From an uncultured Gammaproteobacteria bacterium (GTDB lineage: Bacteria; Patescibacteriota; Microgenomatia; UBA8517), in assembly GCA_964583685.1 (NCBI GenBank), contig CAZOVJ010000001.1, forward strand, positions 393,152 to 457,151: a stretch of DNA of 64,000 bases, in the 5' to 3' direction. How positions within the stretch are numbered: position 1 is the stretch's first letter; every line of letters begins with the position of its first letter. The position numbers were made by a program, and so were the translations under genes. Below are positions 252 through 49,108 of the stretch, in pieces. A model generated the notes under the pieces. It was not told where the DNA came from. It saw only the letters and a list, made by a program, of their open reading frames with translations, and did no database searches.

Positions 252-1124
252 TTATTCTTCCTTTCCCTTCCAGTATTTAAAATAGGCAAGGGGAAAATGT
301 AAGGCTGAGAAACTAGACCAGATAAACCCGCGCATACCATCCAAAAAACCCTTATGCCTCAAGTAAAGATTTAGAAAAACAAATAGCGGTTTGATTATCG
401 AATAAAAAAGAAGGGAAAAAATATTTTTAGCAATCTTTTGTTCTTTAAAGTTCTTGGCACTCAAACTGGTGTATCTGTTAGCCCGCTCAAGATACCTTTT
501 TAAAGTTGGTGAATCGTGATGCTCCAAATCATTAAAAAGCCAGCTAACCTGGCCATCAATTTGCATTTGCTCGTGAACGGATTTGGCCGGAAAGCGGGCT
601 TTGCCCTTTTTGAGCAACCTGATTACGCCATCCGGGTAAAGGCCAGCGTGTATTAGAAACTTGCCTAAAAAGAAGTTTTTTCTGGGAACGAAAAGGGCAA
701 CAATTTCACCAGTATCTTTGCCAATTTTTCCGTTTCTTTTTTCAATTAAGGCCTGGTGTTTCTTAAAAAGCCTTTGCTTGCTTCTATCTTTTAATTTCCT
801 GGCTTTAATCTCTTTATCACTCGTTGAGATAACCCTACTTATCTCCGAAGCTAGTTCGGGCGTTACCCTTTCATCAGCGTCAAGTTGAAGAATCCAGTCT
901 CCGGTTGCATAATCTAATGCTTTCTGCTTGCTAATATGGAAAATAGGCTGATGGGCTACTCTATAAACCTTGGCTCCATAAGACTTGGCTATTTCTCGGG
1001 TTTTATCTACTGAGGACTCATCAACAACAATTATCTCATCCGCCAGTTGCTGAACAGATTCCAAACAAGGACCGATGTTCTCTTCCTCATTGCGGGTTGC
1101 AAGAACGATGCTTAGCTTTTTCAT
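252..1124 (-). CDS. GT2 family glycosyltransferase (DPM1 / polyprenol-phosphate sugar synthase-like)
   Basis: N-terminal LSIVLATRNEEENI...IIVVDESSVDKT and a DxD region (LDADE). Confidence 0.8.
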   Translation of the reverse strand: MKKLSIVLATRNEEENIGPCLESVQQLADEIIVVDESSVDKTREIAKSYGAKVYRVAHQPIFHISKQKALDYATGDWILQLDADERVTPELASEISRVISTSDKEIKARKLKDRSKQRLFKKHQALIEKRNGKIGKDTGEIVALFVPRKNFFLGKFLIHAGLYPDGVIRLLKKGKARFPAKSVHEQMQIDGQVSWLFNDLEHHDSPTLKRYLERANRYTSLSAKNFKEQKIAKNIFSLLFYSIIKPLFVFLNLYLRHKGFLDGMRGFIWSSFSALHFPLAYFKYWKGKEE

Positions 1125-1125
1125 C

Positions 1126-2796
1126 TCAATTCTCCACTATTTCAAAAGCAATATCTCCTTTTGGAAAATAAATTTTCTTTATTATATTCGCCTCATTAGG
1201 AATTTCTTCATCCGCAGGAATTTCTTCATCCGTTCCAATAATTAAGCTGTTGGGATTTTCTGGCTGCACTTGGTCAAAATCAATCGGTCCAAAATAAAAT
1301 TTATCAAATTGCTGGACAGTGGAAAAACCAAATTTATCTTTGGCTGTTAAGTAATGGTCAGCCTGAAATTTAGCTGGCGGATATTTTAAATAAAATAAGA
1401 AAAGAATGTAGGGCTGATCATAGCGGTCAGTGACAATAACCTTGTCATATTTATAGGCATTGTCCTGAACAAAAGAAACAAGCTCCTTAAGGCCATATTG
1501 GGAAGAAAAAGGATATTCCTTGGCCACATGAACCCAATACAGGTGGAGATATCTGGCAAAGTTCCAGGTGATGAAAGCAATAAGCAAAAAGTAACAAGCG
1601 ATAAGTACCTCTTGCGGTTTAATATTTTTCTTCAACCACTTGATTATTCTCACTAGTCCATAGGCGCTGATGATGGTCAGGGGAATAACCATGTTCTGGG
1701 CCCGAAGGGCATGGGGAGATTGGAAGGTTAAGGCGGCTGCCATTGGCGCTACCACTAACCACCAAAGCACAGGTTTCCACCCCTTGGACCCTTTGACAAT
1801 GGCCAGCAAACCGACAAGAATAAAGACCAAATCAAAGAGATACAGCTGACCAGTTTCCGGCACTTTATTGCGCTGAATTGCGTCACCGGACAAAAATAAA
1901 AACTCTCCCCAAAAATGCTCTCCCCAATTCTCTGTCAAGGCCAAGCCATAATTAACAACCTTATTGTGCAAAACTCGGGCCAAGAGTCCCTGATAATTGG
2001 CATGTTCACCTCTTTGTTCATTAATCCGAGCCAGAGGACCGGGGTCAGCAAAAAGACCAACCCCAGTTGCCCGGGAAACAGCTCCCGGCTTTAACAAATC
2101 AGCAACCAAAGGCAAAAGAAGAACTCCGGCTATCAGTCCAGCCATTAACAATGGCTTGAGCTTGGCTTTGAGCTGGCGACAATAAATGATGATAAAGCCT
2201 AAGCCGAGCAAGGGAACAACAAGCCTAGCCGCATGGTAAGTATACAAAGATAAGGCAAAAGGCAAAAGGCAAAAGGCAAAATATTTGAAATTTTTTAAAG
2301 ATTTTAAAAACAACCAAATGCCACAAGTAATAAAGAAGGTGGCAGCATTAACTTCCCAACCTCCTCGAGAAAAATGGATGTGCCAAGGACTTATGGCCAG
2401 GAAAAAGCTCGAGATAATGGCCAGTTTCTCTCGCCCACCTGCCCTGGGTGCGCTAATTCCCAATTCTTTAACTAGAAAATAAACAACTAATATTGTCGTT
2501 ACTCCCAAAAGAGCTCCGGGAATTCTCACTGCCCATTCATTTAAGCCAAGAAATTTAACAAAAGGCAAAACCAGGTAAAAGAAAAGACCGGGTTTATAGT
2601 CATTAAAGGACTGAAAATGAAGCGGCCAGGAATTACCGTGCTCATCTCTTCCGGTTTGGAGTAATGAATAGACATTGTAACCAATGGCCGCTTCATCAGC
2701 ATTAAGGGCCGGATAACTGTTTAATCGATAAAAGCGCAAAATGAAAGCAAGCAAAATTATCAAAAACAAAACTATTTTCTTGTTCTTAATCAGCAT
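1126..2796 (-). CDS. GT-C glycosyltransferase, ArnT/PMT (PMT_2-like) family, paralog 1
   Basis: Loop motif NADEAAIGYNVYSLLQTGRDEHG...GLNEWAVRIPGAL. About 11 TM helices. Conserved C-terminal soluble region (KFYFGPIDF). Confidence 0.85.
   Translation of the reverse strand: MLIKNKKIVLFLIILLAFILRFYRLNSYPALNADEAAIGYNVYSLLQTGRDEHGNSWPLHFQSFNDYKPGLFFYLVLPFVKFLGLNEWAVRIPGALLGVTTILVVYFLVKELGISAPRAGGREKLAIISSFFLAISPWHIHFSRGGWEVNAATFFITCGIWLFLKSLKNFKYFAFCLLPFALSLYTYHAARLVVPLLGLGFIIIYCRQLKAKLKPLLMAGLIAGVLLLPLVADLLKPGAVSRATGVGLFADPGPLARINEQRGEHANYQGLLARVLHNKVVNYGLALTENWGEHFWGEFLFLSGDAIQRNKVPETGQLYLFDLVFILVGLLAIVKGSKGWKPVLWWLVVAPMAAALTFQSPHALRAQNMVIPLTIISAYGLVRIIKWLKKNIKPQEVLIACYFLLIAFITWNFARYLHLYWVHVAKEYPFSSQYGLKELVSFVQDNAYKYDKVIVTDRYDQPYILFLFYLKYPPAKFQADHYLTAKDKFGFSTVQQFDKFYFGPIDFDQVQPENPNSLIIGTDEEIPADEEIPNEANIIKKIYFPKGDIAFEIVEN
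1198..1233. repeat. Perfect-but-one 18-nt tandem duplication (aggaatttcttcatccgY x2) encoding DEEIPA/DEEIPN
   Basis: Read directly. Lies in the C-terminal region of GT-C paralog 1. Confidence 0.9.
2252..2281. repeat. Heptanucleotide tandem repeat (GGCAAAA)x4 (sense strand TTTTGCC) inside a CDS, in frame
   Basis: Read directly. Encodes FAFCLLPFA within a TM helix of 1126..2796. Confidence 0.9.
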
Positions 2797-2797
2797 A

Positions 2798-4471
2798 TTA
2801 TTTAACCTCTATTATCCTAAAAGCCTCCTCTCCGTTTAAATATTTTATTTCTCTAAGTAGGCGAAAAAGACTTTCATCACTGGAGTCCTCTATGGGAATT
2901 CTGATCGGATCAGCCACAAAAAGCGTTCCCTTCTCTCTCCGATTGATTGACCAGTCAATTGGACTAAACTCAATATTATCCAATTGCTCTACCTGGCCAA
3001 CGTCGCCAACCTCACTTTCCCTTAATCTTGCCTGTTTTTGGTATTTTAGGGGATCATATTTCTGGTAAAACAGAAAAAAGATATAGGGTTGGGCAAATGA
3101 TTGTTGAACTTTTATTTTTTGATAATTATTCTGGACTGGGCTGACTGTTTCTACTATCTGCTTATAGCCATATTCCCAGTATTTTGAATCGTGCTTAGGA
3201 AGATGAATAAAATAAGCATCTAAAAAGTAGGTAAAACTTGCCAGATAGAAAAGAATTACTATTCCGCAACCCGCAACCCGCAGCCGTCTCCTCCCTATCC
3301 AAACAACTAAACTTCGTAAACCGAAGGCAGCAACAATCATCAAGGGAATCAACAAGTTATAAGAGCGGACTGCCTGAATTTGGTCCCTGGATAAAGCAGC
3401 TGGCAGAGGAGCTAAAAAGAGCCAAAGCCAAACAAATTTAACTTCTCTTTTGGCCGCTAATCTGGTCAGACTGACAAAACCAAAAATCAAGGCAATTAAA
3501 TCAGCAAACAATAAAACTCCCTGATTGGGGGCAGTATGTCTTGGATTTTGCCAATCTCCCTCGAAAAAGAGAAACCTTGTTGAGAAATGATTGAACCAGC
3601 GACCCAAAACTCCCCGAGTAAAATTAAGAGCTTCTGAATGAAAAAGATAATATCTCAAACTGCCAACTTTTTCATTTCCCTGGTCAAGAAAGTCTTGAAG
3701 ATAAACCTCTGGCCGCGGGTAGGAAAAGACACTGAATACTGACAACCTACCGGTTTTACCCTGAAAAAGACTGAAAATTATAGGCAAGGAAATGAAAAAT
3801 CCAGTCAAAAATGCGGCTAAAAGAGTTCTCTTTTTAAAACCCAGTAATTGCCTACGATAAAGAACTACCAATAATAAAACCACAATGGCTGACGACAGCT
3901 TAGCTCCCTGATAAATAAGCAGGCTTGAGCTAAAAAATAATCCAGAGAAGATTAAATATCTCTGTTTTTTAAAAGACCTGAAGAAAAAATAGATGCCTGC
4001 CAAAGTAAATGTTAGACAAACATTCATTTCCCAGGCGCCGCGACTAAAAAGAATGTGCCAGGGATTAATTACCAGTAAAAGACTGGCAATAATCGCCAAT
4101 TTATTGTTCTTAAAAACCTCTTTGATCAGTAGATAAAAAAGCCAGACTGCTAAAATCCCAGACAGAGCACTGGGAAGCCGGACAGCAAGTTCGTTCAGTC
4201 CTAATAGAGCGACAAAGGGGGTAGTTAAATATATATAAAGGCCGGGCTTGAAATCGCCAAAAGATTTGAAAATTATGGGTAAGAAATTACCATACTCATC
4301 TTTGCCTGTCTTTAAAATTGAGTAGGCATTGTACCCCAAGGCCGCTTCGTCCTGGGTCAGGTGGGGTGGGATAACCCCAAGTTTCCAAAGACGCAAAAAA
4401 CCGGCTAAAAGAAGAATCATTATCAGCAAACTTTGTTTAATTTTCATAAATTTCAAAAGCCGGCTGGCCAT
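2798..4471 (-). CDS. GT-C glycosyltransferase, ArnT/PMT family, paralog 2
   Basis: TQDEAALGYNAYSILKTGKDEYG...GLNELAVRLPSAL. Start is ambiguous (overlaps the upstream gene by 35 nt). Confidence 0.85.
   Translation of the reverse strand: MASRLLKFMKIKQSLLIMILLLAGFLRLWKLGVIPPHLTQDEAALGYNAYSILKTGKDEYGNFLPIIFKSFGDFKPGLYIYLTTPFVALLGLNELAVRLPSALSGILAVWLFYLLIKEVFKNNKLAIIASLLLVINPWHILFSRGAWEMNVCLTFTLAGIYFFFRSFKKQRYLIFSGLFFSSSLLIYQGAKLSSAIVVLLLVVLYRRQLLGFKKRTLLAAFLTGFFISLPIIFSLFQGKTGRLSVFSVFSYPRPEVYLQDFLDQGNEKVGSLRYYLFHSEALNFTRGVLGRWFNHFSTRFLFFEGDWQNPRHTAPNQGVLLFADLIALIFGFVSLTRLAAKREVKFVWLWLFLAPLPAALSRDQIQAVRSYNLLIPLMIVAAFGLRSLVVWIGRRRLRVAGCGIVILFYLASFTYFLDAYFIHLPKHDSKYWEYGYKQIVETVSPVQNNYQKIKVQQSFAQPYIFFLFYQKYDPLKYQKQARLRESEVGDVGQVEQLDNIEFSPIDWSINRREKGTLFVADPIRIPIEDSSDESLFRLLREIKYLNGEEAFRIIEVK
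3265..3285. repeat. Heptanucleotide repeat (CCGCAAC)x2 plus a degenerate copy inside a CDS
   Basis: Read directly. Encodes RVAGCG in 2798..4471. Confidence 0.7.
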
Positions 4472-6152
4472 CTAGAAAATTAATTGTTTTTAATTTGTGC
4501 CAGCCTTGAGGATAATTTCCCGGACCGGTAATCAGAAGACAGTCTTTTCCTTGACAATCCGCCTTTTCGCCACTTTCTAAAATAAATTCTCCGTTTTTAC
4601 TTGTTGGTATCTGCCAGTCATTGACAAAATAGAACTTGTCAAATCTATCCAGCCAATACCAGTTTGATTGGTAAAAGCGGATAAGCTCGGGGTCATTTTG
4701 GAATCTTGCAGGCTCCCAAGGCCAGTAAAATAAGAAAAATTCATGGGGCTCACCATATTTTTTAGTAATAATAAACTTCTCATATTTCTGATAATTAGTC
4801 CTACTATAATCAACCACTTCCTTATACCCATACTGCCAGGACCAAGAATAGTTCTGCCGATATTCAAAGGCATAAGCCTGGCCATAATTTTCAATAGACA
4901 GGCCCAAAAGGAAAATATAGATTACGGCGAATAAATACTGAGGAACAATTCCTCCCGCAGGGCGGGCTTTCAACCATTGCCATACCAAGTTCAGACCAAG
5001 AGCAGAAAAAATCATTGGTATTGGTAGAAGTACAATACTCCTTAAAACATGAGGGGCCTCTCGGGTTAGACTTGAAGCGATTGGTCCAAGAAGAAACCAG
5101 CTAAGCAACAAACGAGCACTTTTTTCTTTATTCATCCTCTTAACAACAACAATCAACCCTAGCAAAAAAAATGGACAATTGATGGCGTATAAAAGTCCGT
5201 GTTCGGGCAAACTAAATTGATAATGGCTTCCGCCCTTCAAAAACAAGAATTCTGGAGAGAAGTGAGAAAAGTAGTTGGCAAGAAAAGTCTTTGTAAAATA
5301 GGTAACCTTGTTGTGGATTAAGAGGCTAGCTAGAGGCGTTAATTCTGTCTTGAGTCGCTCCTCATTTATCCGGTTAATCATTCCCTGGTCCAAAATCTCC
5401 ACCCATTGATAACGGGCTTGGCCGACTGGGTTGAAAAGCTGGTAAAACATAGGCAGGAAGAAAAATGCAAAAATCAAAATGCAAAATGCAAAAATCTTTT
5501 TATTTTTTTGATAAAACGACAAAACTTCTCTTTTATAAATAAAACTGAGTCCTAAAAGTAAGAGGGGAACAAAAATTCGGGCAGAATTATAAGTCCAGAC
5601 TGACAGGGAAAGCAAACCAATCCCCAATAATATTGGCCAAGATTTTTTCTCTAAACCCAACCATAAGAAATAAACACCGGAAATAATCAGGGCCAGGGAC
5701 AAGTTGGCTTCTACCGCAACCCTGGAAACAAACAAACCCCAGGGCTCCAAGGCAAGTAAAAGGCCAGCGATAATGGCCAGTTCCTTGCTTTTAAAAAGTT
5801 TTTTAACCAATAAATAGGTAAACAAAACACTAAAAGTTCCTGCCAAAATCGAAGGAAGCCTAACAGATAAAGCACTCAGGCCAAAAAAGAACTCTGAAAT
5901 TAAAGTCAAATAAATATAAAACGGCAGCTTATAATCACCATAAGCCCTGAAAATAATCGGCAACCTCTTTCCCCACTCGTCTTTGCCGGTCTTCAAAATA
6001 GAATAAGCATTATAACCATGACTGACCTCATCCCAATTAAGAGCCGGCGGAACAAGGGAAACATGACTAAATCTGAGGAAAAAGGCAAGTAAAATAACCA
6101 ATATTACCAGTAAATTTTTCCGAACTAAAAAAAGCCCTTTTAATAACATCAA
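4437..6152 (-). CDS. GT-C glycosyltransferase, ArnT/PMT family, paralog 3
   Basis: NWDEVSHGYNAYSILKTGKDEWG motif. Polytopic. Confidence 0.85.
   Translation of the reverse strand: MMLLKGLFLVRKNLLVILVILLAFFLRFSHVSLVPPALNWDEVSHGYNAYSILKTGKDEWGKRLPIIFRAYGDYKLPFYIYLTLISEFFFGLSALSVRLPSILAGTFSVLFTYLLVKKLFKSKELAIIAGLLLALEPWGLFVSRVAVEANLSLALIISGVYFLWLGLEKKSWPILLGIGLLSLSVWTYNSARIFVPLLLLGLSFIYKREVLSFYQKNKKIFAFCILIFAFFFLPMFYQLFNPVGQARYQWVEILDQGMINRINEERLKTELTPLASLLIHNKVTYFTKTFLANYFSHFSPEFLFLKGGSHYQFSLPEHGLLYAINCPFFLLGLIVVVKRMNKEKSARLLLSWFLLGPIASSLTREAPHVLRSIVLLPIPMIFSALGLNLVWQWLKARPAGGIVPQYLFAVIYIFLLGLSIENYGQAYAFEYRQNYSWSWQYGYKEVVDYSRTNYQKYEKFIITKKYGEPHEFFLFYWPWEPARFQNDPELIRFYQSNWYWLDRFDKFYFVNDWQIPTSKNGEFILESGEKADCQGKDCLLITGPGNYPQGWHKLKTINFLDGQPAFEIYEN
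5462..5496. repeat. Heptanucleotide tandem repeat (AAAATGC/AAAAATC)x5 inside a CDS, in frame
   Basis: Read directly. Sense strand GCATTTT/GATTTTT encodes IFAFCILIFAF in a TM helix of 4437..6152. Confidence 0.9.
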
Positions 6153-7801
6153 GACTCAACTAGCCAATAAGCATCTGTTCCATTTGGGTATCTAATAATC
6201 TTCTTTGTTTTAATTTCCTGAGGAAATTCTTCCGGGCTACCAATAACTAAAACATTTTGCTTAAGCAAATCTAATTTCCAATCAATTGTCTTAAAAGTAT
6301 ATTTATCCAAGTGATAAACATCTAATTGATCCAGCCAAATTAATCCTTTTTCTTCAAATTTCCAATTTCCCGACTGCTCCTGTATCTGAGCTGGCTCAAT
6401 CTTCTTATAAAAAGCAACAAATATCTGCGGCTCTGAGATTTTTTTAGTAAAAATAATCTCTTCGTATTCACCTTCAATCAGCCCCAGATATTCCATGATC
6501 TCCCTGGTGCCATAAATCATTGCTTTTGCTTGAGTTGCCGGTTGTTGAACAAAATAATCTTCAAGGAAAAAAGCAAAGGAAACAAGAAGAATTAAGCTCG
6601 CGCCAGGAATTATCAATTTTTGAAAGTATTTGGGAAGCTTTTCCTTAAGCTCAAAATATAAATAAATTCCGCCTATACCGGAAATTATTTGAAGGGCTGG
6701 AACCATAAAAAGAACCCGATTAGCCGCATAGCCCGGACCAATACTTAAAGCCGCTGGTATGGGTGAGATGAAAATCCAAAAGATGAGCCAATTAAGTTTT
6801 TTGATTTTACCAGTTAGCCAAGCCCAAACAAAGGCTAACAATAAAAACAACTCAAAGGTGTAAAGAACTCCCTTGCCCGGAAGCATGCCATAGGTTCCTT
6901 CTCCCGGTCCCTGGCTAAAGAAAAACTGGGGAGAAAAATATGAGAAATAATTCCTTAGAAAGGTTGAAAAGACAAAAGTCAGTTTATTATTAAAAATTCG
7001 GGCAGTAAAATCGGGCAAGCCTGCTAAGACGGCCGAGTATCTGGCGTCTCTTACATTCGAAGCCAGGCTAAAAATTCCGGCTGAGGATAGCCGTGAGCCT
7101 GCCCCAAAAAACAGGCTATAGCCTGCCAATAGCAAAAAAGGGCAAAAAACAATCAGGCCAGGAAGACATCTTTTGAAATCTAGTCTTGAACGATTAAACC
7201 AAATCAAACCTAGCAACAAAAGGGGCGTCAGTAAACGGGCTGAATGATAGGAAAAAAGATTTAGGCCAAAAATTAAGGCTGAAAGAACAAAAAGTTTGGC
7301 TCTTTTCAATTCTCTTGGAGAAAATGAACAAGCCTTAAAAAAGAAGAAAAGGGCCAAGGGCAAAAGAAAGGTTGTCAAGTTAGCCTCAAAGGCTCCTCTG
7401 GACATGGGAATATGCCAAGGAGAAATGGCTAACAGTAAAGCTGTTAGAATTGCCAAATTCTGCCTTTTAAAAACCTCCTTAACCAAAAAATAAACAACCA
7501 AGATTGATAAGCTGCCTAAAATAGCATTGGGTAGCCGGACAGCAAATTCATTCAGTCCAAAAACAGCGACAAAGGGAATATCTAGATAAGCATATAGAGG
7601 AAGTTTATAATCGCCAAAGGAACGCAGGGAAAGAGGGAAAGATCTTCCCCATTGGTCTTTTCCAGTCTTCAAAATCGAATAGGCATCGTAGCCAAAAGAG
7701 GCTTCATCAGGCGTGAAGCCGGTCGGATGGTTAGACAAAGCAATAACCCGCAATACAAAGGCAATTAAAATTATGCCTACCAGTAACCATTTTCGCATCA
7801 A
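6149..7801 (-). CDS. GT-C glycosyltransferase, ArnT/PMT family, paralog 4
   Basis: TPDEASFGYDAYSILKTGKDQWG...GLNEFAVRLPNAL. Confidence 0.85.
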   Translation of the reverse strand: MMRKWLLVGIILIAFVLRVIALSNHPTGFTPDEASFGYDAYSILKTGKDQWGRSFPLSLRSFGDYKLPLYAYLDIPFVAVFGLNEFAVRLPNAILGSLSILVVYFLVKEVFKRQNLAILTALLLAISPWHIPMSRGAFEANLTTFLLPLALFFFFKACSFSPRELKRAKLFVLSALIFGLNLFSYHSARLLTPLLLLGLIWFNRSRLDFKRCLPGLIVFCPFLLLAGYSLFFGAGSRLSSAGIFSLASNVRDARYSAVLAGLPDFTARIFNNKLTFVFSTFLRNYFSYFSPQFFFSQGPGEGTYGMLPGKGVLYTFELFLLLAFVWAWLTGKIKKLNWLIFWIFISPIPAALSIGPGYAANRVLFMVPALQIISGIGGIYLYFELKEKLPKYFQKLIIPGASLILLVSFAFFLEDYFVQQPATQAKAMIYGTREIMEYLGLIEGEYEEIIFTKKISEPQIFVAFYKKIEPAQIQEQSGNWKFEEKGLIWLDQLDVYHLDKYTFKTIDWKLDLLKQNVLVIGSPEEFPQEIKTKKIIRYPNGTDAYWLVES

Positions 7802-33238: not shown

Positions 33239-33240
33239 AA

Positions 33241-34752: not shown

Positions 34753-34816
34753 AAGCTTATTTTAACACTGTTGAAAACCAACTTTGACCATGAACTGGGT
34801 TATCTGTAATAATTGC

Positions 34817-35548: not shown

Positions 35549-35555
35549 GGAGTTT

Positions 35556-42111: not shown

Positions 42112-42856
42112 TATATCTACCTAAAAAAGCACTTATTCTCACCCGGGTTAAATCTTTCAAGGCCTGCCACGAGTCTTTGATGGGATTTACCCTCAAGGTA
42201 CCTTTATGATGCCAGATAACAGGCACTTCAACAACCTTTAAGCCAAGTTTTTTGGCAATATAAAGGAGCTCCAAGTCAAATCCAGCGGTCACGGCTGAGC
42301 CTTCCAGGGCCCGCTTTTCCGTAAAAACCTGCATCCTTTCAAAAACCTGCTTAACGGTCTTTTTGTTAAAGGCCTTAAAGCCACATTGAGTATCACTGTA
42401 GCCCAGTCCAAGAATTAATATTCTGAGGATTTTAAAACCATAAGCCATGGCCTTACGAATAAAAGGGGCTCCCTCTCGTCCTTGTCTTGAGCCAATAACA
42501 ATATCGTACTTTCCCCTCTCAAATTGAGGCAAAACCTTGGCTAATTGATTAATAGGTGTTGCCTGATCCATATCAGTAAAAAGAATTATCTGGCCAGAAG
42601 CAACCAGCATCCCGGCAATCACTGCCCCGGCCTTTCCCCGGTGAGGCTCTTGATAAACCTTGAAGTTTTTATGCTCACGGCTAAATTTCTCGGCCAGAAA
42701 GGTTGTCTTGTCAATTGACCCATCATCAACTATTAAAACTTCCCAAGAGTACTTTTGCTTTTTTAAATAGTGATAGACACTCTCTAGAGCACCTGATTTT
42801 ATATTTTCCTCTTCATTATAGGCCGGGATAACCAGCGAAAGGTATATTTTTTCCAT
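42104..42856 (-). CDS. GT2 polyprenol-phosphate sugar synthase-like glycosyltransferase
   Basis: LSLVIPAYNEEENI...VLIVDDGSIDKT...FTDMDQ. Confidence 0.8.
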   Translation of the reverse strand: MEKIYLSLVIPAYNEEENIKSGALESVYHYLKKQKYSWEVLIVDDGSIDKTTFLAEKFSREHKNFKVYQEPHRGKAGAVIAGMLVASGQIILFTDMDQATPINQLAKVLPQFERGKYDIVIGSRQGREGAPFIRKAMAYGFKILRILILGLGYSDTQCGFKAFNKKTVKQVFERMQVFTEKRALEGSAVTAGFDLELLYIAKKLGLKVVEVPVIWHHKGTLRVNPIKDSWQALKDLTRVRISAFLGRYNV

Positions 42857-44343
42857 TATTTAGTAAAGCCAAACATGGGATCTGTCAGATTAGAATTTTG
42901 GCCGCTACAACTTATAAGTACCTCCTCCTTCGTATACAAAGGATAATCAGGATAGATAATTCCTATTGCCCCGAAAGTTTTATGAACTTCTATGTCTTTT
43001 CTCAACGGAAAAACAATTGTATAGACAGGGCTTCCACTTTTCGGATGATTAACATGGATGTCTTCCAACCAGAAAAAATATCTATAACCCAACTCATAGC
43101 CCGGCTTTGTTATATAAGAAACAGCCACACAGGGAAAATCTTTTTCTTGAGCATCTTTTTTAATTTCGGCAACAACCGCCCTTCTCTCAATATACCCACT
43201 TTTATTTATATCCATTGAAAAAAATCTATAAATATTAATAGCTAAAAATAGAACTATTAAAGAAATTGATAGTTTTTTAAATCTTTCTTGATTGAATAAA
43301 GATGAAATAGCCACACTCACAATTCCAATCCAGACAACGGTCATCCCGTTGAAATAATATTCGGAAAGAATAATTGCGTTAAGAGAGAAAAACACGATGT
43401 ATATTGCCAGCCAGATAGACCAAAGTATAATCAGCTCTTTCCTAATCAGCTTTTTGATGGCAATAAAAAATAATAGTCCAATCAGAATGTAGAGTGCCCA
43501 TTTATGCTCGATATTAATAAACGAACCCCACAGAAGACCTGTCGTATTTTTGGAAATTAAAGTAATTGCTCTATGAAACTTAATTAGGATTCCAGAAAAA
43601 TCACCTTTGCCTATTGTCAAAGAGCCTAGCACGGCCTTTGTTTGACTAAAACCATGACGCAATTCAAAAAGGATTAAAGGCAAGGATGTTAGTATTAGTG
43701 ATATTACTCCAAAAATGGCAGCATTAATATTTAGTCTTTTTCTTCCTAAGAAAAACGCAATCAAAGCCAGGGGGGCTATAATTGCCAGAGCTAAGTTAAA
43801 ATTCCAAACTAGGCCCAGTAAAATCCCGCTCAATATAAAACCCCTTTTTTGTTCACCTCTGAGTATTAAGTGTAGGGAATAAAGAAACCAAACCGTCCAA
43901 ATTATGGCTGGCGTAGTTGGCACAACCTCCCTATCAGTTAAAACAGTATAAAAAGAAGTCGCATATATTAGAGAAGCAATTAGCCCTGTTGATTTATTGA
44001 AAATTTTCAAAAACACATAATAGCAACTCCAGATACCAAAGGCCCCCAAAAAGGTAACCATTACAACTCCTCCTATTGGATCCATGTCAAAAAGTAAATA
44101 AAATGGAATAAGAAGATAATAAAAAACAGGCCCTACAAAAACTCCGTGACTTGAAGTCTCTTGACCGATTAATCGCAAATGTTTGTTAACCAAAATATCT
44201 TTTATTATCCATCCTGCCAAATCCTGATCATGGGAATAGATAAAAAGTTGAAGAGGTTTGTAGCTTTTTAAAAATAGTCCCAATCCCAAAATTACTAGGA
44301 ATGGATAGTTCTTAATAATAAATTTTTTAATTTTGAGTTTCAA
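42856..44343 (-). CDS. GT-C-like polytopic membrane protein, 'RD-motif' family paralog B
   Basis: YSHDQDLAGWIIKDILVNKHLRLIGQETS is similar to the other RD-family members. Confidence 0.6.
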   Translation of the reverse strand: MKLKIKKFIIKNYPFLVILGLGLFLKSYKPLQLFIYSHDQDLAGWIIKDILVNKHLRLIGQETSSHGVFVGPVFYYLLIPFYLLFDMDPIGGVVMVTFLGAFGIWSCYYVFLKIFNKSTGLIASLIYATSFYTVLTDREVVPTTPAIIWTVWFLYSLHLILRGEQKRGFILSGILLGLVWNFNLALAIIAPLALIAFFLGRKRLNINAAIFGVISLILTSLPLILFELRHGFSQTKAVLGSLTIGKGDFSGILIKFHRAITLISKNTTGLLWGSFINIEHKWALYILIGLLFFIAIKKLIRKELIILWSIWLAIYIVFFSLNAIILSEYYFNGMTVVWIGIVSVAISSLFNQERFKKLSISLIVLFLAINIYRFFSMDINKSGYIERRAVVAEIKKDAQEKDFPCVAVSYITKPGYELGYRYFFWLEDIHVNHPKSGSPVYTIVFPLRKDIEVHKTFGAIGIIYPDYPLYTKEEVLISCSGQNSNLTDPMFGFTK

Positions 44344-45826
44344 TTCGTTTTCTCCTTTGAACAGTTATTCCACCAAACCTGGCCTCTTCTTCCACCACTC
44401 CTATCCCCTTTTGTCTCTCAAGCCAGGCTTCGAGCCGCTCCGGGTGAGGCGGGTCTACTTCGTATAAAGTATAAAGCAAGGAAACCTGCTCCTCCATTGG
44501 TTGATAACCATACTTGCTTCCATACCATTTAAAAAGATAGTCATAGCTATAGGGAATAACCGGCGGGACATAGACATCGACATTGAACTTCCTACTGCCA
44601 ACATCTGTATAAATCCAATCAAGGGCCTGCTTCTCATTGCCAAAGGCCACTGTTTGCGGGCCGTCAAGTCCATCGGAAATCTTATAACGGACAACCTCAA
44701 AATTTGTTGACAAAAATACATATAAAAAGAAAATAATAAATATCTTACCCGGGCCCAGTTTCCAAAGTTGTCCCAAAACAACGGCAAAAAGCAAGATGAA
44801 AATCAGATAATACCCGGTTAAATAATAACCATAGATGTTGCCAAAATTTCCCTGGAAAAAAAGAAGGCCTAAAAGAGGAGAAAGGAAAAGAAGTAGTAAA
44901 ATTTTTATACCATCCCTTTTGAGCAATTTGGGTAAAAAGGCAATAAAAGAAAATCCTATCACCCCGAGAATAAAAACCTCTCTTGCCCGCCGCCAGTGAA
45001 AAATCTTATTAGTAAAAACATCATAATAAAAATTTAATCTAGTGCCAACAACCTGCCAAAGAGAAACCTTAAAGCTTTCATCTTTGATTAAAAATTTTTC
45101 CAGACTATTGCGTATTAAACCAGCGTGTCTGATATCAAAAACAACTAACGGAAAAGCAGTAAAGAGCAGGGCGATGACACTGAGCAACAAGAATTTTTTG
45201 TCGGGCAAATTTTTGCGCCTTATCTGCCAGATGGCAAAGAGAAAAATGGCGGGAAAATAAAAAACCTCACCAGCTGAGCCAAAATGAAAAAGAGAAAGCC
45301 CGGCAATTAAGGCAATCAACGGCCAAGCCCATTTTTTTCCCTTTGTAACCAGGAGCATCATCCAAACGAGCAAAAGACTTAATAGAAGCATGGGTGTAGG
45401 ATTGGAAAGCCAGCGTGAAGCCATAATAATATAAAAAGAAAAAGAGGCAATCACAGCCGCCAAAAGTCCAGTCATTCTATCCTGAACCTTAAAGCCAAGA
45501 TAATAAAGAATGATAATGGCTAGAACACTAGTCAATGCCAAAAAAACGGCCGGCCAAACAGGGTTTCCGCCTCCAAGTAAATAAAATGGGGCAATCAAAT
45601 AATAATAAAAAGGGCCTCTAAAAATACCAGCTATTCCGGTTGTCGGCCCAATCAAAAAAAGCTTCCCTTTGTGCCACAAATCCCAAATGACCAAGGCATC
45701 CCTTCCCTGGTCATAATAAAATCCTAAAACCTGCCCCACTCGATAAACACGGACAAATAGAGCCAGGCCAAGGATAAGGAAGAGAAGAAAATAAATAAGG
45801 GGATGGTAGTTTTTGAGCTTTTTCAT
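44327..45826 (-). CDS. GT-C-like polytopic membrane protein, 'RD-motif' family paralog C
   Basis: FYYDQGRDALVIWDLWHKGKLFLIGPTTG. Confidence 0.6.
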   Translation of the reverse strand: MKKLKNYHPLIYFLLFLILGLALFVRVYRVGQVLGFYYDQGRDALVIWDLWHKGKLFLIGPTTGIAGIFRGPFYYYLIAPFYLLGGGNPVWPAVFLALTSVLAIIILYYLGFKVQDRMTGLLAAVIASFSFYIIMASRWLSNPTPMLLLSLLLVWMMLLVTKGKKWAWPLIALIAGLSLFHFGSAGEVFYFPAIFLFAIWQIRRKNLPDKKFLLLSVIALLFTAFPLVVFDIRHAGLIRNSLEKFLIKDESFKVSLWQVVGTRLNFYYDVFTNKIFHWRRAREVFILGVIGFSFIAFLPKLLKRDGIKILLLLFLSPLLGLLFFQGNFGNIYGYYLTGYYLIFILLFAVVLGQLWKLGPGKIFIIFFLYVFLSTNFEVVRYKISDGLDGPQTVAFGNEKQALDWIYTDVGSRKFNVDVYVPPVIPYSYDYLFKWYGSKYGYQPMEEQVSLLYTLYEVDPPHPERLEAWLERQKGIGVVEEEARFGGITVQRRKRIETQN

Positions 45827-46857
45827 TTTTTCTTGGCAAATTTTTTGGCTGTCTGAAGTACCTTCTCTACTGCTTTAGTAAAGGCAAGTCCCTGGATTAT
45901 TACTCCGGCTGCTGCCTTATGCCCACCCCCACCCAAGACAAGGGCTATTTTAGAAACATCAAAATCAGTCCGCGCTCTGAAACTTACTGAAAGCTTGCCT
46001 TCTTGCTTTTCCAGCATAATTATCCCAAAATCAACCCCCTTTACAACCCCGGCAAACATACTGGCTGCACCCTCATGTGCCTGTAAAGGCCTACCATACT
46101 CTAAAAATTTATTATAAGGAAGGGCTGACCAAACAAATTTAAACTTTTTTTCAAACTTCATCCCAGTAAGAAATTCGCCCCACATCTTTAAGGTATTAAA
46201 TCCCATACTGCGATAAAGGTGGAAAATAATTTTTTCTTTATCAGCTCCCCCTTTAAGAAGCTTTATGGCTGCTTCCAGGGTTTTCAAACTAGTATTGGAA
46301 AATCGGAAAACTCCTGTGTCTCCAATTATGCCAGTAAGAAGAGCTGTGGCAATATTTCTATCAATTTCAACTTTCCAATCTTTAAAAATTAAGTAAAGAA
46401 GCTCTCCAACCGAGCTAACCTTAGCATCAACTAAATTTATGTTTCCAAATTTCTCGTTTGTTTTATGATGGTCTATTACTATAAGGGGGAGGCTGGGTAC
46501 TTTTATGTCTTTATCTCCAGAAACCATGTACCAACTGGCAGAATCAAGAACAATAAAAAGATCAAATCTCAAAAAGTTATAAGTCGAAAAATCTACAACT
46601 TGAATTTTCTCAGAATAGGCTAAAAACTTAACACTTTCTGGTAGTTCATTTGGGCAGATTACTTCTACTTTTTTCCCCATTTTTTTGAGGACCTGGTACA
46701 TAGCCAGTGCGCTGCCAAAAGCATCGGGATCAGGACTACGATGGCAATTAAGCAGAATTCTCTTGGACTGCTTAATCTCTTTTAAAATTATTTTCGACTG
46801 CTGATAATTCATTGCGTGTGGACTAGTTGATATAAGGTTATTCCTCCAACTTGCCAC
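45823..46857 (-). CDS. nrnA: DHH/DHHA1 phosphoesterase, NrnA-like (oligoribonuclease / pAp phosphatase)
   Basis: DHH motif (LIVIDHHKTNEKFG), DxD (HRSPDPDAFGSA) and DHHA1 GGGH (LGGGGHKAAAG). Confidence 0.8.
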   Translation of the reverse strand: MASWRNNLISTSPHAMNYQQSKIILKEIKQSKRILLNCHRSPDPDAFGSALAMYQVLKKMGKKVEVICPNELPESVKFLAYSEKIQVVDFSTYNFLRFDLFIVLDSASWYMVSGDKDIKVPSLPLIVIDHHKTNEKFGNINLVDAKVSSVGELLYLIFKDWKVEIDRNIATALLTGIIGDTGVFRFSNTSLKTLEAAIKLLKGGADKEKIIFHLYRSMGFNTLKMWGEFLTGMKFEKKFKFVWSALPYNKFLEYGRPLQAHEGAASMFAGVVKGVDFGIIMLEKQEGKLSVSFRARTDFDVSKIALVLGGGGHKAAAGVIIQGLAFTKAVEKVLQTAKKFAKKK

Positions 46858-48413
46858 TCTTTTTCAATTTTGCTCCAGCCAAAATTGGCAACCTCTGCTT
46901 TCGGGTTGTGAGTAGGATCACACTTCTCTTTTGGCAGTTCGCAAACAACAAAAAGCTGATTGGTTATTGTTTCATCTACCCTTAATGGATCAATATCTAT
47001 TACACCAGTATCCCATTTTTCCAAAAAATACTGATATGCATCCTCGTAGTTTCTTTCAGCAATAACAGCCAAGTTGAACTTCTGACCTTCTGCTTCTTCT
47101 TGAATTTTGGCGGCAACCTCTTGAGATCTTTGCAACTGCCTGTTTGGCGGACCATTAATCGGGCTGTTCCTTAAATTAACGATAATCAAGAAACCAAAGG
47201 CGATAAGCGATAAGAAATAAGCCCTTGGAGAAAAGTCTTTTAATTTCTGGATGATTGCCCCAACTAGAAGAAATGGGGTAGCAAAGAAAAAGCCGTAATA
47301 ATGGTCATAAATTTCCTGCTTAAAAACCCCTAATCCCAAAAGGGCGAAGCCTAGCCAAATAAGAAGCAGGAAATAGGTCTTAAACTTTTTAGCTTCAAAC
47401 CTTGAACGACAAAATTCAAAACCCAACCAGATTACTCCCGCTACCAATCCCAAAGCCGTCCATTTTCCCATAAGCTCATTTTTCCCTGCCAACAATCTGG
47501 TACTAATTTTCTCAATCAAAGGCCAAACTTTAGGTAGGGCTTTCCAGGGCCGGGCAGACACCGTTGTCTGTCTTTGTAAGAAAAATTTTTTCATGGAAGA
47601 AAAGTTCCGCCACCCATGCCGAGCATCAAAAATCACCAATGGAGACATAAGTAAAGTAAAAAGAGCTAGACAAAAAACCGAATACTTTAAAAAACTTTTT
47701 GTTTTTTCTTTATCTTTTTTTATTTCTATTAAGGTTAACAACCAGAAAATTGAAATAACCGGAGCTAAAAGTAAGCCTAAATAATGAGATTGTAAAACAA
47801 AGGCAAAAGATATCGCACTTAGCAAAAACCACTTCCATTCGTGTTTTTGCCAAATACGCCAGGTTGCATAAATCGTCAAAAGGCTAAAAAAGGGCATAAT
47901 GTTCGGATTCCATGAAGAGCGAGAGTAAACAATGACCACCGGCGAAACTGCATAAAGGCCAGCAGCAACCATACTGGCTAAAGGAATTTGTCCGGGGCTT
48001 GTTGAAGGAAACCACTCTCGAGCAATCAACCAAACAAGAGCAATTGTCAAAACAGCCAAAAGGGCAATCAGGACAGCCGGTCCAACAGGAGAATATCCTG
48101 CCAGGAAAAGAGCAGGGGCCATTAGGTAATAATATAAGGGGCCCAAATACATGTCGCCAATTGATGTTCCCGGACCAATCAAGATTGGATCTAGCTTAAC
48201 CAAAAGTCTTCTGACAACAATTACATCTCTACCTTCATCACCCAAAAAAGTCATGTATTCGGAAATTCTATAAAGTCTTAAAAAGCCACCAACTAATAAA
48301 ATTAAAGCCAGGACCATAAACTCCCTTTTATTGGCTTGAATCCAGGCTTTAATTTTGATGAACAGTGAACAGTTAACGGTGAACAGTCGTCTTCTCATTA
48401 CAATTTTCTCCAA
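46809..48413 (-). CDS. GT-C-like polytopic membrane protein, 'RD-motif' family paralog D; N-terminal extension built from heptamer repeats
   Basis: FLGDEGRDVIVVRRLLVKLDPILIGPGTS. An internal ATG at 48396-48398 overlaps the upstream stop by 1 nt and reads MRRRLFTVNCSLF, encoded by the RGTGAAC tract. Confidence 0.6.
   Translation of the reverse strand: MEKIVMRRRLFTVNCSLFIKIKAWIQANKREFMVLALILLVGGFLRLYRISEYMTFLGDEGRDVIVVRRLLVKLDPILIGPGTSIGDMYLGPLYYYLMAPALFLAGYSPVGPAVLIALLAVLTIALVWLIAREWFPSTSPGQIPLASMVAAGLYAVSPVVIVYSRSSWNPNIMPFFSLLTIYATWRIWQKHEWKWFLLSAISFAFVLQSHYLGLLLAPVISIFWLLTLIEIKKDKEKTKSFLKYSVFCLALFTLLMSPLVIFDARHGWRNFSSMKKFFLQRQTTVSARPWKALPKVWPLIEKISTRLLAGKNELMGKWTALGLVAGVIWLGFEFCRSRFEAKKFKTYFLLLIWLGFALLGLGVFKQEIYDHYYGFFFATPFLLVGAIIQKLKDFSPRAYFLSLIAFGFLIIVNLRNSPINGPPNRQLQRSQEVAAKIQEEAEGQKFNLAVIAERNYEDAYQYFLEKWDTGVIDIDPLRVDETITNQLFVVCELPKEKCDPTHNPKAEVANFGWSKIEKEWQVGGITLYQLVHTQ
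48357..48391. repeat. Heptanucleotide tandem repeat (RGTGAAC family, about 5 units, partly degenerate) at a gene junction
   Basis: gatgaacagtgaacagttaacggtgaacagtcgtc encodes MRRRLFTVNCSLF, an N-terminal extension of 46809..48413 just after the stop of 48398..49108. Confidence 0.85.
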
Positions 48414-49108
48414 AGTCGAAAAAGATCCAGAAAACTCCTGACAATAACATTTAAACTAGCCCCGGTTGCTCTTCCGGCCAGTCGAGGATAATGGTTAACT
48501 CCAACTTCAACAATTTTAAACCCTTTCTTTTTTGCCTTGATTAAAAGCTCACTGCTGATGAAGGCGCCCCTTTCACTCTCCAGTCTAGAAATCTGATTAA
48601 TAACCTTTTTGGAAGCCAGTTTAAATCCACAGTCAATGTCCCGGACCCTAAGACCAAAGAGAAGAAAAACCAACCATTGCCAGAAAAAACTATTTAGCTT
48701 GCGAATAAAGGGAACTTGACGCTTTAAATAATATCCTATAACAATATCGGCACTTGTCCGCTTTTGAGTTTGGATAAATTTGCTAATCTCTAAAAAATCA
48801 AACTGACCATCAGCATCAATAAAGGCAATCCAGAAATACTTTGAATTATAAAATCCACTTTTGAGAGCTGCTCCGTAACCACGATTCACTTGATGACTAA
48901 TTATCCGTATCCTTTTGTCTTCTTTACTTAATTTCCGGGCAATTTCAGCCGTTTTGTCCTCAGAACCATCATCGATTATCAGTATTTCCCATTTATTCGC
49001 TATTTTCAGAAGAACTTCTTTGGCCTTTATAACGGTTTCCTCCAAATGTGTTTCTTCATTGTAAGCAGGAAAAAAGACCGATAACTCGCCAATCAGTTTT
49101 CCTTTCAT
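48398..49108 (-). CDS. GT2 polyprenol-phosphate sugar synthase-like glycosyltransferase
   Basis: LSVFFPAYNEETHL...ILIIDDGSEDKT...FIDADG. Confidence 0.8.
   Translation of the reverse strand: MKGKLIGELSVFFPAYNEETHLEETVIKAKEVLLKIANKWEILIIDDGSEDKTAEIARKLSKEDKRIRIISHQVNRGYGAALKSGFYNSKYFWIAFIDADGQFDFLEISKFIQTQKRTSADIVIGYYLKRQVPFIRKLNSFFWQWLVFLLFGLRVRDIDCGFKLASKKVINQISRLESERGAFISSELLIKAKKKGFKIVEVGVNHYPRLAGRATGASLNVIVRSFLDLFRLWRKL

Follow-up and report, generated by a model that had tools for sequence, protein, structure and literature searches.

A syntenic block of GT-C membrane glycosyltransferases in a Microgenomates genome and its possible role in surface glycoconjugate assembly

A glycan gene block in a compact genome

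The window analysed here is a stretch of 64,000 nucleotides from the genome of a Woesebacteria-like (Microgenomates, CPR) bacterium, with its ORFs numbered g01 to g54 in window order. An earlier sequence-only reading had pointed to positions 252-49108, a region in which 35 of the 37 ORFs of at least 100 aa are glycan-related, the exceptions being g20 and g35. The cluster is larger than this at both ends and forms a block of approximately 53 kb: on the left, a GT4 gene follows g01 beyond the window start, and on the right g38, g41 and g42 carry it on to about position 53,500. Nearly all gene junctions overlap or are separated by less than 50 bp, in favour of co-transcription, and the GC content is even across the locus (0.38-0.40). 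The features are as follows.

252..1124, minus strand: g01, a GT2 of the GT2x group (PF00535, 7.6e-20)
1126..7801, minus strand: g02 (1126-2796), g03 (2798-4471), g04 (4437-6152) and g05 (6149-7801), tandem ArnT/PMT-like GT-Cs of group A, in which DE follows TM1; together they make up the syntenic core array
7713..11110, plus strand: g06 (divergent group-A relative) and g07 (group A, 9476-11110), an inverted pair inside the array
11084..13389, minus strand: g08 (Gpi18/PIG-M-like GT-C) and g09 (probable PIG-V-like GT-C)
13386..15128, minus strand: g10, group-A GT-C (PMT_2, 1.9e-12)
15086..17461, minus strand: g11 and g12 (rhamnosyltransferase-like GT2s) and g13 (SAM methyltransferase)
17454..21478, minus strand: g14 (group-B GT-C) and g15 (YfhO-family GT-C, 810 aa)
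21435..25099, minus strand: g16 (GT4), g17 (GT2x), g18 (rhamnosyltransferase-like GT2) and g19 (GT2x), by Pfam and NCBIfam
25814..27535, minus strand: g21, a conserved Pfam-less GT-C with a fold nearest to oligosaccharyltransferase catalytic subunits
27535..30673, minus strand: g22 (divergent group-A GT-C) and g23 (Wzx/MOP flippase)
30723..34752: g24 (plus strand, 280 aa, truncated GT-C-like), g25 (plus strand, group A, 31562-33238) and g26 (minus strand, divergent PMT_2-like)
34784..40563, plus strand: operon of g27 (GtrB/ArnC/DPMS-like GT2) followed by g28-g30 (group-C GT-Cs, PTPS_related/YfhO-like)
40525..49108, minus strand: operon of g37, g36, g35, g34, g33, g32 and g31, in which g37 and g32 are DPM1-like GT2s, g36, g34 and g33 belong to group B and g31 is a PMT_2 GT-C (Pfam, NCBIfam)
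49155..50312, plus strand: g38, a probable PIG-V-like GT-C just outside 252-49108
51554..53502, minus strand: g41 (51554-52726), a polyprenyl-phosphate mannose synthase-like GT2-GtrA/DPMS fusion, and its paralogue g42
58866..62128, minus strand: rmlD, rmlC, rmlB and rmlA (g49-g52), dTDP-L-rhamnose supply

In two operons a GT2 gene precedes GT-C genes (g27 before g28-g30; g37 before g36, down to g32 before g31). The gaps within the first are 7, -4 and -4 bp, and every junction of the second overlaps. Its NrnA-like DHH gene, g35, is probably a passenger.

Membrane transferases and their cytoplasmic partners

The gene content bears out the claim of about 24 membrane GT-Cs in one locus. Support is graded: 14 ORFs pass a Pfam gathering score (PMT_2, YfhO or PTPS_related), while g38 and g09 are rated as probable GT-Cs. 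The GT-Cs that do not pass reach hhalign probabilities of 89-99.8%, barring g21 (74%) and g09 (57% to group A); such values may be inflated for hydrophobic proteins, although three polytopic membrane controls (Wzx, FtsX and PiT) stay below 5% and argue otherwise. As in the GT-C_A fold class, an N-terminal GT-C helical module lies in a polytopic membrane protein. From this fold and the linkage to DPM1/GtrB-like GT2s we infer that polyprenyl-phosphate or -diphosphate sugars are used as donors on the extracytoplasmic face. It is a negligible prospect that these ORFs encode transporters or membrane proteins of another kind, or that they are artefacts of assembly or of repeats: eight ORFs have no Pfam match at E<=0.01, but the idea found no support when tested.

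All seven of the proposed ArnT/PMT-like paralogues (g02, g03, g04, g05, g07, g10 and g25; group A) were recovered, and the motif DE-x3-GY-x2-YS-x-L-x-T-[GS]-[KR]-D is present in 7/7. Full-length identity among them is 28-35%, and D41-E42 after TM1 is invariant in eight of eight group-A sequences. PF02366 (PMT) scores above its gathering threshold in g02-g05, g07, g10 and g31, and PMT_2 matches g07 at 7e-11 and g25 at 7e-13. Identity among the seven is 46% at residues 1-120 versus 24-27% at residues 251-557, a pattern counted in favour of what would be shared chemistry acting on different acceptors. Elsewhere, the proteins of groups B and C, and also g06, g08, g21, g22, g26 and g31, have an acidic D, DD, DE or DQ about 10-25 residues past TM1.

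The four proteins described as RD-motif paralogues do form one BLAST family, group B (g14, g33, g34 and g36; g14 matches g34 at 1e-27 and PMT_2 weakly), but the RD dipeptide itself holds in three of the four, g33 reading HDQDLAG in its place. The four YfhO-like proteins are upheld by Pfam and hhalign. One of them, g15, exceeds the gathering score of PF09586 (2.2e-23; 83 bits against a cutoff of 28.5) and its C-terminus matches PgfM1/PgfM2. The other three, g28-g30 (group C), have no direct YfhO match, but their profile aligns with g15 at 99.5% by hhalign; they match PTPS_related (PF10131) or weakly PMT_2, and g29 and g30 pass PF10131.

The divergent GT-C-like singletons are likewise present (g06, g08, g09, g21, g22, g24, g26 and g31), with g38 added past the end of the range. 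Neither g06 nor g08 has a Pfam match. The former aligns with the group-A profile at 99.8% by hhalign over 493 columns; the latter aligns with group A at 97%, its profile matches GPI mannosyltransferase 1 in the PDB at 5e-8, and its homologues are named 'Gpi18-like mannosyltransferase' by JGI. The singleton g22 matches g10 by BLAST at 7e-27, and g26 combines a weak PMT_2 match with 98.8% by hhalign. The truncated g24 aligns at 96% with columns 126-389 only of group A and lacks the catalytic loop; its N-terminal part is missing, and the acidic motif after TM1 is absent. As for g38, it has no Pfam match of its own and aligns at 89-94% with group A and at 96% with g08, and g09 aligns at 97% with the g38 family (against the 57% to group A) and weakly matches NF046093. 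In a scan of an alignment of these two with six loci relatives, PF04188 (Mannosyl_trans2) matches four of the eight members, at best 7.8e-10.

The partners fared differently. About 12 GT2 lipid-sugar synthases had been proposed; eleven GT2s were found, nine within 252-49108 plus g41 and g42 outside, and only five of the eleven (g27, g32, g37, g41 and g42) resemble polyprenyl-P-sugar synthases of GtrB/ArnC/DPMS type. The top NCBIfam matches of g27, g32 and g37 are PpgS, PgfS and ArnC, and those of g41 and g42 are PgfS and AglJ, with ArnC and PpgS lower for g41. The best PDB matches of g27 are the GtrB sll0501 (3e-17), then ArnC and DPMS. Residues 2-339 of g41 align with Pyrococcus furiosus DPMS (5mlz; 8.4e-44), so that g41 is homologous to archaeal Dol-P-Man synthase along its full length; it carries PF00535 and PF04138, and it alone joins a DPMS-like catalytic domain to a GtrA-like membrane domain, the only flippase-like domain among the donor synthases. 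The expected GT2-GtrA fusion is therefore present, but outside 252-49108. The other four have the catalytic domain only, and no TM helices are predicted in them, barring one crude hydrophobic segment in g32; g42 is 38% identical to g41 and lacks the membrane domain. No separate, free-standing GtrA gene was seen.

The remaining six GT2s do not qualify as polyprenyl-P-sugar synthases by NCBIfam or PDB matches. Three are rhamnosyltransferase-like (g11, g12 and g18; g11 and g12 have Pfam matches and match TIGR01556/MftF-like models of NCBIfam), and rmlABCD (NCBIfam TIGR01214, TIGR01221, TIGR01181 and TIGR01207, with TIGR01181 above its cutoff at 452.7 bits) likely supply their dTDP-L-rhamnose donor. 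The other three form the unclassified GT2x group (g01, g17 and g19); the best PDB matches of g01, GmaR and SunS, cover its N-terminal 90 aa only. The interleaved GT4 (g16), methyltransferase (g13; Methyltransf_23/11) and Wzx-like flippase were all found by models. The flippase g23 belongs to the Wzx/MOP type, with Polysacc_synt_3 (PF13440) at 1.8e-58 (198.6 bits against a cutoff of 23) and the MOP flippase model NF007773 at 2e-43, and O-glycosylation flippase models also match. The products of g16-g19 are presumed to be cytoplasmic glycan-building enzymes.

Conservation across Microgenomates

The locus was compared with those of 80 related species-level genomes, and the same array occurs in 80/80 loci from Woese-, Shapiro-, Ames-, Davies- and Blackburnbacteria MAGs; complete genomes among the relatives measure 0.81-0.92 Mb, in keeping with the compact genome first proposed. 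The recurring order is g12-g11-g10-g08-g05-g04-g03-g02-g01. Its syntenic core comprises four to seven A-type GT-Cs, then a GT2x in most loci and one DPM1-like GT2 in about half. The conserved last gene of the A-array, g01, has a positional orthologue in 68 of the 80 loci (median identity 51%), and orthologues of g10 at the same position reach 69%. A second syntenic block (Wzx, g21, three GT2s, GT4, YfhO, group B, methyltransferase, two GT2s, group A) is shared with CP066693.1 and JACPEJ010000001.1, both of which keep the run 'GT2, GT2, GT2, GT4, YfhO' after the g21 orthologue. CP066693.1 also has the equivalent of the g31-g37 block, minus the DHH gene. The inverted g06-g07 pair recurs in three loci (L014, L018 and L030), and g24 is kept beside g25 orthologues in four.

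Positional orthologues are 45-69% identical versus about 30% between paralogues. These identities, together with recurrence in 80 genomes, rule out a strain-specific expansion or an assembly artefact; the duplications are old, the paralogues being only about 30% identical. On these comparisons the locus is to be regarded as an old, fixed and sub-functionalised pathway, and as a lineage-wide syntenic feature of Microgenomates. It is very improbable that it is a variable surface-glycan island, of O-antigen or capsule type, that phages or hosts have driven to expand through recent duplications and horizontal transfer. The inverted pair, the insertion or rearrangement of the g24-g30 block between Wzx and g31 among genomes, and a group-C gene that is only sometimes present inside the A-array would suit such an island, but the age of the duplications, the conservation of positional orthologues across several candidate phyla and the uniform GC content speak against it.

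A proposed pathway and its alternatives

The locus is best read as building a conserved surface glycoconjugate step by step outside the cytoplasm, and it is with moderate confidence that we propose it as a cell-envelope glycoconjugate assembly line. The family and fold assignments, the synteny and the conservation pattern are as described above; to these the scheme adds a step order, sugars, an acceptor and a topology that we infer. In a first stage, at the cytoplasmic face, the soluble GT2s and GT4 (g11, g12, g16-g19 and g01), the methyltransferase g13 and dTDP-rhamnose from rmlABCD would build a lipid-linked glycan, which in a second stage the Wzx/MOP flippase g23 would carry across the membrane. 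These two stages have no defined start or end, because the scanned ORFs of the window include neither an initiating phosphoglycosyl transferase (WecA/MraY-like or WbaP-like) nor a ligase of LCP or Wzy_C type. In a third stage g27, g32, g37, g41 and g42 would form a few different polyprenyl-phosphate monosaccharides. One or more of these is probably polyprenyl-P-mannose, made by the DPMS homologue g41, and the GtrA-like domain fused to this enzyme may aid delivery of the lipid-sugar to the outer face. In a fourth stage the approximately 24 GT-Cs would spend these lipid-sugars outside on a conserved surface glycan or glycoprotein, each GT-C accounting for one linkage or one acceptor; some may act as hetero-oligomers. 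Since the paralogues are old, non-redundant and fixed in order, they are read as steps, taken one after another or side by side, of a single conserved pathway, comparable to those of mycobacterial LM/LAM/arabinogalactan or of the ER-lumenal ALG3/9/12/6/8/10 enzymes, with the limit that by sequence alone a sequential assembly line looks the same as parallel glycosylation of many acceptors.

An unlikely alternative is that the GT-Cs serve chiefly to O- or N-glycosylate proteins, each paralogue acting on its own set of secreted proteins (such as S-layer proteins, pilins or adhesins), and do not build one polymer. PMTs carry a D-E motif in loop 1, with which the loop-1 motif here agrees; PMT_2 and PMT are the best Pfam families, the acceptor-side regions of the A paralogues have diverged, and the fold of g21 is nearest to OST catalytic subunits by two methods. 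The PMT N-terminal domain of GT39 with its DE motif is present, but no MIR domain was found in lumenal loop 5, as a full eukaryotic PMT of GT39 would have. Identity with ArnT (GT83) also fails: the profile match is marginal (E 0.0012), ArnA, ArnB and ArnD are absent from the window, ArnC models remain far under cutoff (at most 69 versus 529 bits) and a phmmer search of g03 against the PDB found nothing. Sequence similarity to ArnC/ArnT and GT39 is marginal, and seven to nine paralogues stand here in place of one. CPR bacteria are not known to make lipid A.

Quite unlikely, too, is an ER- or archaeal-style LLO pathway in Microgenomates, in which a cytoplasmic glycan is flipped by Wzx, elongated outside the membrane by at least ten GT-Cs in a fixed series and transferred en bloc by an STT3/AglB-like g21. 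ER and archaeal Agl N-glycosylation uses DPMS or AglJ/AglD, a flippase, ALG3/9/12/6/8/10 or AglS, and the OST STT3/AglB. Here, similarly, g41 is near archaeal DPMS (8e-44), AglJ models match the DPM1-like GT2s, a Wzx-type flippase is present, multiple GT-Cs have ALG12/ALG9/ALG3/ALG6-like folds and g21 is nearest in fold to STT3/AglB/PglB by two methods, the C-terminal domain of AglB-S2 included. Unlike STT3/AglB, g21 has no Pfam match even at E<=10 (and hence no STT3 model), its family profile has no sequence match in the PDB, and WWDYG/WWDxG is absent, the residues past the last TM reading '...LTGRPPAKISNQELEAL...'; by sequence it fails as a member of GT66 (STT3/AglB/PglB). Its family is highly conserved and Pfam-less, with more than 1500 members, and the gene lies near Wzx. 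In such a pathway a DPMS-type polyprenyl-P-mannose synthase would feed elongation, and the target would be surface proteins or the wall. If true, no bacterial glycosylation system known would be more elaborate, and the oligosaccharyltransferases would gain a new branch.

The sequence-only reading had implied that each of many distinct donors has a transferase of its own: about a dozen polyprenyl-P-sugars would serve many independent two- or three-component decoration systems, with S-layer, pili or wall polymers as putative targets. This division into dedicated pairs is improbable. Three-component systems combine a GT2 of the GtrB/CsbB/ArnC type with a flippase of GtrA type and a GT-C, for example GtrC, YfhO or ArnT, according to PMC11127046, PMC8035078 and PMC5836110, and the first two attest to them in bacteria. 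Local pairs (g27 with g28-g30, g37 with g36, g32 with g31) recall them, as do DPM1/GtrB-like GT2s beside GT-Cs, the YfhO member g15 and the GtrA/DPMS domain of g41; presumably a lipid-monosaccharide is likewise made inside and spent outside. However, known systems pair each GT2 with one GT-C and attach only one decorating sugar, whereas here some five synthases stand against about 24 GT-Cs, six of the eleven GT2s being rhamnosyltransferase-like or unclassified soluble enzymes. A single GT2 (g27) precedes three GT-Cs, the core sets four to seven A-type GT-Cs before a GT2x in most loci and one DPM1-like GT2 in about half of them, GtrA is not free-standing, and the array is syntenic class-wide, not serotype-variable. 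Since only five of the eleven GT2s are synthase-like, the many GT-Cs are probably supplied by a small set of lipid-monosaccharide donors.

The assembly line that we favour is comparable to the mycobacterial and corynebacterial GT-Cs of LM, LAM and arabinogalactan (PimE, MptA-C, AftA-D and EmbA-C), which use decaprenyl-P-mannose or -arabinose. The subfamilies are separate, with no specific sequence relationship, and CPR bacteria are not known to have a mycolate envelope. The mycobacterial genes are scattered over a 4 Mb genome, whereas here they lie in the one block of approximately 53 kb in a genome of about 0.9 Mb, as judged from the related complete genomes.

Public annotation already labels individual genes 'glycosyltransferase family 39' or 'ArnT family', and a full-text literature search of incomplete coverage found no description of this GT-C expansion. 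CPR/Patescibacteria have lost most biosynthesis. Here about 38 kb of GT-C coding sequence, approximately 4% of the genome, is kept in conserved order, and selection therefore appears to preserve a complex surface glycan; the conserved block order suggests that these cells build an elaborate surface sugar coat. The locus offers an ordered, testable gene set, with a clear homologue of polyprenyl-P-mannose synthases and an STT3-like family that has no Pfam match, and the surface glycan is probably central to host attachment, phage resistance or envelope stability of these ultrasmall cells.

Glycosyltransferase complement of the window

All ORFs of at least 100 aa were numbered g01 to g54 in window order. 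The window is nearly all coding, with neighbouring genes overlapping or less than 50 bp apart, and its GC content is uniform (0.38–0.40). Pfam places eleven ORFs above the gathering score for PMT_2 (g02–g05, g07, g10, g25, g31, g33, g34 and g36), one in YfhO (g15) and two in PTPS_related (PF10131; g29 and g30); sub-threshold PMT_2 matches are given by g26, g28 and g30, and no match at E ≤ 0.01 by g06, g08, g09, g14, g21, g22, g24 or g38. Among the window ORFs scanned there is no initiating phosphoglycosyl transferase, no obvious ligase (LCP or Wzy_C) and no free-standing GtrA.

Other features of the window (window positions)
Between 252 and 49108: nine GT2 genes, g01, g11, g12, g17, g18, g19, g27, g32 and g37
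Right of 49108: two GT2 genes, g41 (PF00535 plus a GtrA/DPMS membrane domain) and g42
g16: GT4
g13: SAM methyltransferase
g23: Wzx/MOP flippase
25348–25713, +: g20, orphan 121-aa hydrophobic ORF inside the gap 25100–25813
25814–27535, −: g21, highly conserved family lacking a Pfam assignment; orthologues in two related loci (L085:10001-11722 and L086:10001-11632)
45823–46857, −: g35, NrnA-like DHH/DHHA1 phosphoesterase
50319–51608: g39 (+) and g40 (−), between the membrane glycosyltransferase gene g38 and the DPMS-like g41
53560–56466, +: MacA/MacB-type tripartite ABC exporter (HlyD, ABC and MacB_PCD-FtsX components), flanking the glycosylation block
56486–58147, −: PiT phosphate transporter and PhoU-like regulator, flanking the glycosylation block
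58.9–62.1 kb: rmlABCD
62875–63765: g54, CAP/SCP-domain membrane-anchored protein, at the right end of the window

The polytopic membrane glycosyltransferases (GT-Cs) include three families of paralogues. Seven ArnT/PMT-like proteins singled out in the sequence-only reading (group A: g02–g05, g07, g10 and g25) all carry the motif DE...GY..YS.L.T[GS][KR]D, and full-length identity among them is 28–35%; g22 is related to this group (25–28% identity), g06 more weakly so. The four paralogues which that reading had defined by an RD motif (g14, g33, g34 and g36) do form a second BLAST family, group B, although the dipeptide itself occurs in only three of them. A third family, group C, comprises g28–g30 (31–38% identity). 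When profiles built from window sequences and ORFs of related loci were compared by hhalign, group A was matched by group B at 99.6%, group C at 96–97%, g06 at 99.8%, g26 at 98.8%, g31 at 97.8%, g08 at 97%, the YfhO protein g15 at 92–95%, g38 at 89–94% and g21 at just 74%, while three unrelated polytopic window proteins (Wzx, FtsX and PiT) remained below 5%. The match of g24 (96%) is restricted to columns 126–389, and this protein therefore lacks the catalytic N-terminus; g09 is linked through g38 (97%). The g08 family profile matches the solved GPI mannosyltransferase 1 (5e-8), and g08 homologues bear the JGI label ‘Gpi18-like mannosyltransferase’. In an alignment of g38, g09 and six g38-like ORFs from related loci, PF04188 (PIG-V) is matched by four of the eight members, g38 itself not being one of them. 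Searches of the PDB returned nothing for the g38/g09 profile or, by phmmer, for g03.

Altogether, the estimate of about 24 GT-Cs holds: 14 are supported by curated HMMs, another 8 by homology or structure, and the last 2 are probable. That these proteins are transporters, or otherwise not glycosyltransferases, is rejected on the profile and structure comparisons, and the original observation stands. Existing public annotation of the genes reads ‘glycosyltransferase family 39’ or ‘ArnT family’, labels that are not established for these enzymes, which lack both a MIR domain and an accompanying Ara4N pathway and show only marginal similarity to ArnT. Within group A, identity is 46% over residues 1–120 (TM1, the DE loop and the first helices) and 24–27% over residues 251–557, which fits a donor chemistry shared by all and an acceptor recognition that has diverged.

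Two members of the set deserve separate mention. The called ORF of g06 (7713–9500, +) begins at GTG and overlaps g05 by 89 bp; its true start codon is probably further downstream, because homology to group A starts only near residue 52. The gene g24 (30723–31565, +) encodes a 280-aa membrane protein without TM1 and the DE catalytic loop, and is kept at 42–46% identity directly beside the g25 orthologue in four related loci (L003, L012, L016 and L032). Instead of a pseudogene, g24 could thus encode a partner subunit that is itself non-catalytic.

Probable lipid-linked sugar donors

The GT2 proteins split into three BLAST groups, and polyprenyl-phosphate-sugar synthases are the best matches of only one of these (g27, g32, g37, g41 and g42), the members of which match PpgS, PgfS, ArnC, AglJ and Dol-P-hexose transferase in NCBIfam, and GtrB sll0501 (3e-17), ArnC and DPMS in the PDB. 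The best-defined enzyme of the locus is g41, residues 2–339 of which align with the Dol-P-Man synthase of Pyrococcus furiosus (8.4e-44); this similarity points to polyprenyl-P-mannose as a putative donor. The second group (g11, g12 and g18) is rhamnosyltransferase- or MftF-like, and the third (g01, g17 and g19) matches GmaR and SunS over the first ~90 residues only. A role as lipid-sugar synthase for every GT2 is rejected on the NCBIfam and PDB matches of six of the eleven. Since only the first group best matches such synthases, about five donor synthases would serve about 24 GT-Cs; g27, for example, stands ahead of three GT-Cs in a single operon. The gene content does not bear out the earlier proposal, in which each of many donors has a transferase of its own.

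Conservation of the array and its accessory genes

Relatives were sought with an alignment of four paralogues in one genome per GTDB species, and the best 80 of 504 were taken as loci. All of these 80 are Patescibacteria/Microgenomates MAGs, among which Woesebacteria are closest (54–64% identity), together with Shapiro-, Ames-, Davies- and Blackburnbacteria; the complete relatives have genomes of 0.81–0.92 Mb. Most full-length 21-kb loci contain 5–10 GT-C ORFs. When every ORF was named after the window protein that it matched best, a fixed order emerged, g12-g11-g10-g08-g05-(group-C gene)-g04-g03-g02-g01, after which a DPM1-like GT2 usually comes next. Synteny extends to the second half of the window, which is shared with the complete relative genome CP066693.1 and with JACPEJ010000001.1 (Blackburnbacteria): in both, Wzx precedes the g21 orthologue, after which come three GT2 genes, a GT4 and YfhO. 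In CP066693.1 the run continues with group B, a methyltransferase, two GT2 genes and a group-A PMT_2 gene, the spacing being slightly different in JACPEJ010000001.1. Because positional orthologues are 45–69% identical and paralogues only about 30%, and because the order is conserved, the paralogues are ancient, each retained and fixed in position. A recent or strain-variable expansion does not fit; an assembly artefact or recent duplication is rejected given the ~30% paralogue identity, the identical proteins in independent assemblies and the synteny in the best 80 of 504 relatives.

Many GTDB representative MAGs (binchicken / SRP..._co assemblies) titled ‘uncultured Gammaproteobacteria bacterium’ hold a Microgenomates-type array at 53–63% identity (L002, L003, L011–L013, L015, L018–L022 and others). 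These MAGs are evidently Patescibacteria, and the record titles are therefore wrong.

The cluster also runs past the window start, left of 252, where a GT4 gene with the motif EGFGLPVLEAMACGCPVVAS comes after g01 in the same orientation (L082:5243-6280). Its sole sizeable gap, 25100–25813, has a GC content of 46% against 39% for the window, and the equivalent junction measures 28 bp in CP066693.1. No homologue of g20 occurs among 85 related loci, and nothing meaningful was returned for the gap by Rfam (the window at gathering score, the spacer by E-value) or by tRNA and promoter/terminator scans; the gap may be what is left of an insertion, or may encode a small novel membrane protein. The phosphoesterase gene g35 overlaps its neighbours within the g37-g31 GT-C operon, whereas the corresponding block of CP066693.1 lacks it. 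Most probably it is a housekeeping gene carried as a passenger, but its product may instead process a nucleotide or phospho-sugar by-product. Further right, g39 encodes a small protein of 125 aa with a zf-ChsH2 zinc ribbon, and g40 a 301-aa protein with no Pfam match; homologues of neither were found in the related loci fetched. At the end of the window, g54 could be a secreted surface protein.

An STT3-like candidate and a possible pathway

More than 1500 homologues of g21 at 55–63% identity are all annotated ‘hypothetical’, none with a meaningful Pfam domain. In two independent structure comparisons the nearest fold is that of oligosaccharyltransferase (OST) catalytic subunits: Foldseek ranks Stt3/STT3A in the first six places, DPY19 after these and PglB next, with ArnT about 10^4-fold weaker, and the AF2 model comes closest to STT3, AglB and PglB, its C-terminal domain resembling that of AglB-S2. 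Invariant residues of g21 are H43/D44, E162, E277 and D284/R285. The WWDYG motif is not present and the g21 profile has no match in the PDB; on this motif and sequence evidence g21 is rejected as a canonical OST, and only the fold-level resemblance is kept. A Wzx flippase adjoins g21 or sits one gene away in three genomes.

The enzymes belong to known superfamilies. The scale of the locus, the g21 family and the constancy of the gene order across Microgenomates appear to be undescribed so far, and a full-text literature search of incomplete coverage returned no paper on an expansion of GT-Cs, or on OST-like enzymes, in CPR. By parts list, the Gram-positive three-component systems (CsbB/GtcA/YfhO) are closest, but not by scale; in function, the closest analogies are the GT-Cs of mycobacterial LM/LAM/arabinogalactan assembly and the ALG3/9/12/6/8/10 series of the ER lumen. 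In the pathway that we propose, a lipid-linked glycan would be assembled in the cytoplasm by GT2 and GT4 enzymes together with the methyltransferase, with dTDP-rhamnose as a precursor, and Wzx would move this glycan across the membrane. DPMS/GtrB-like GT2s would load a few monosaccharides, of which mannose is the most plausible, onto polyprenyl phosphate, and the outer-face GT-Cs would spend these lipid-sugar donors, each for one defined linkage or acceptor. Their age, separate retention and fixed positions mark the paralogues as probable non-redundant steps of a single conserved pathway.
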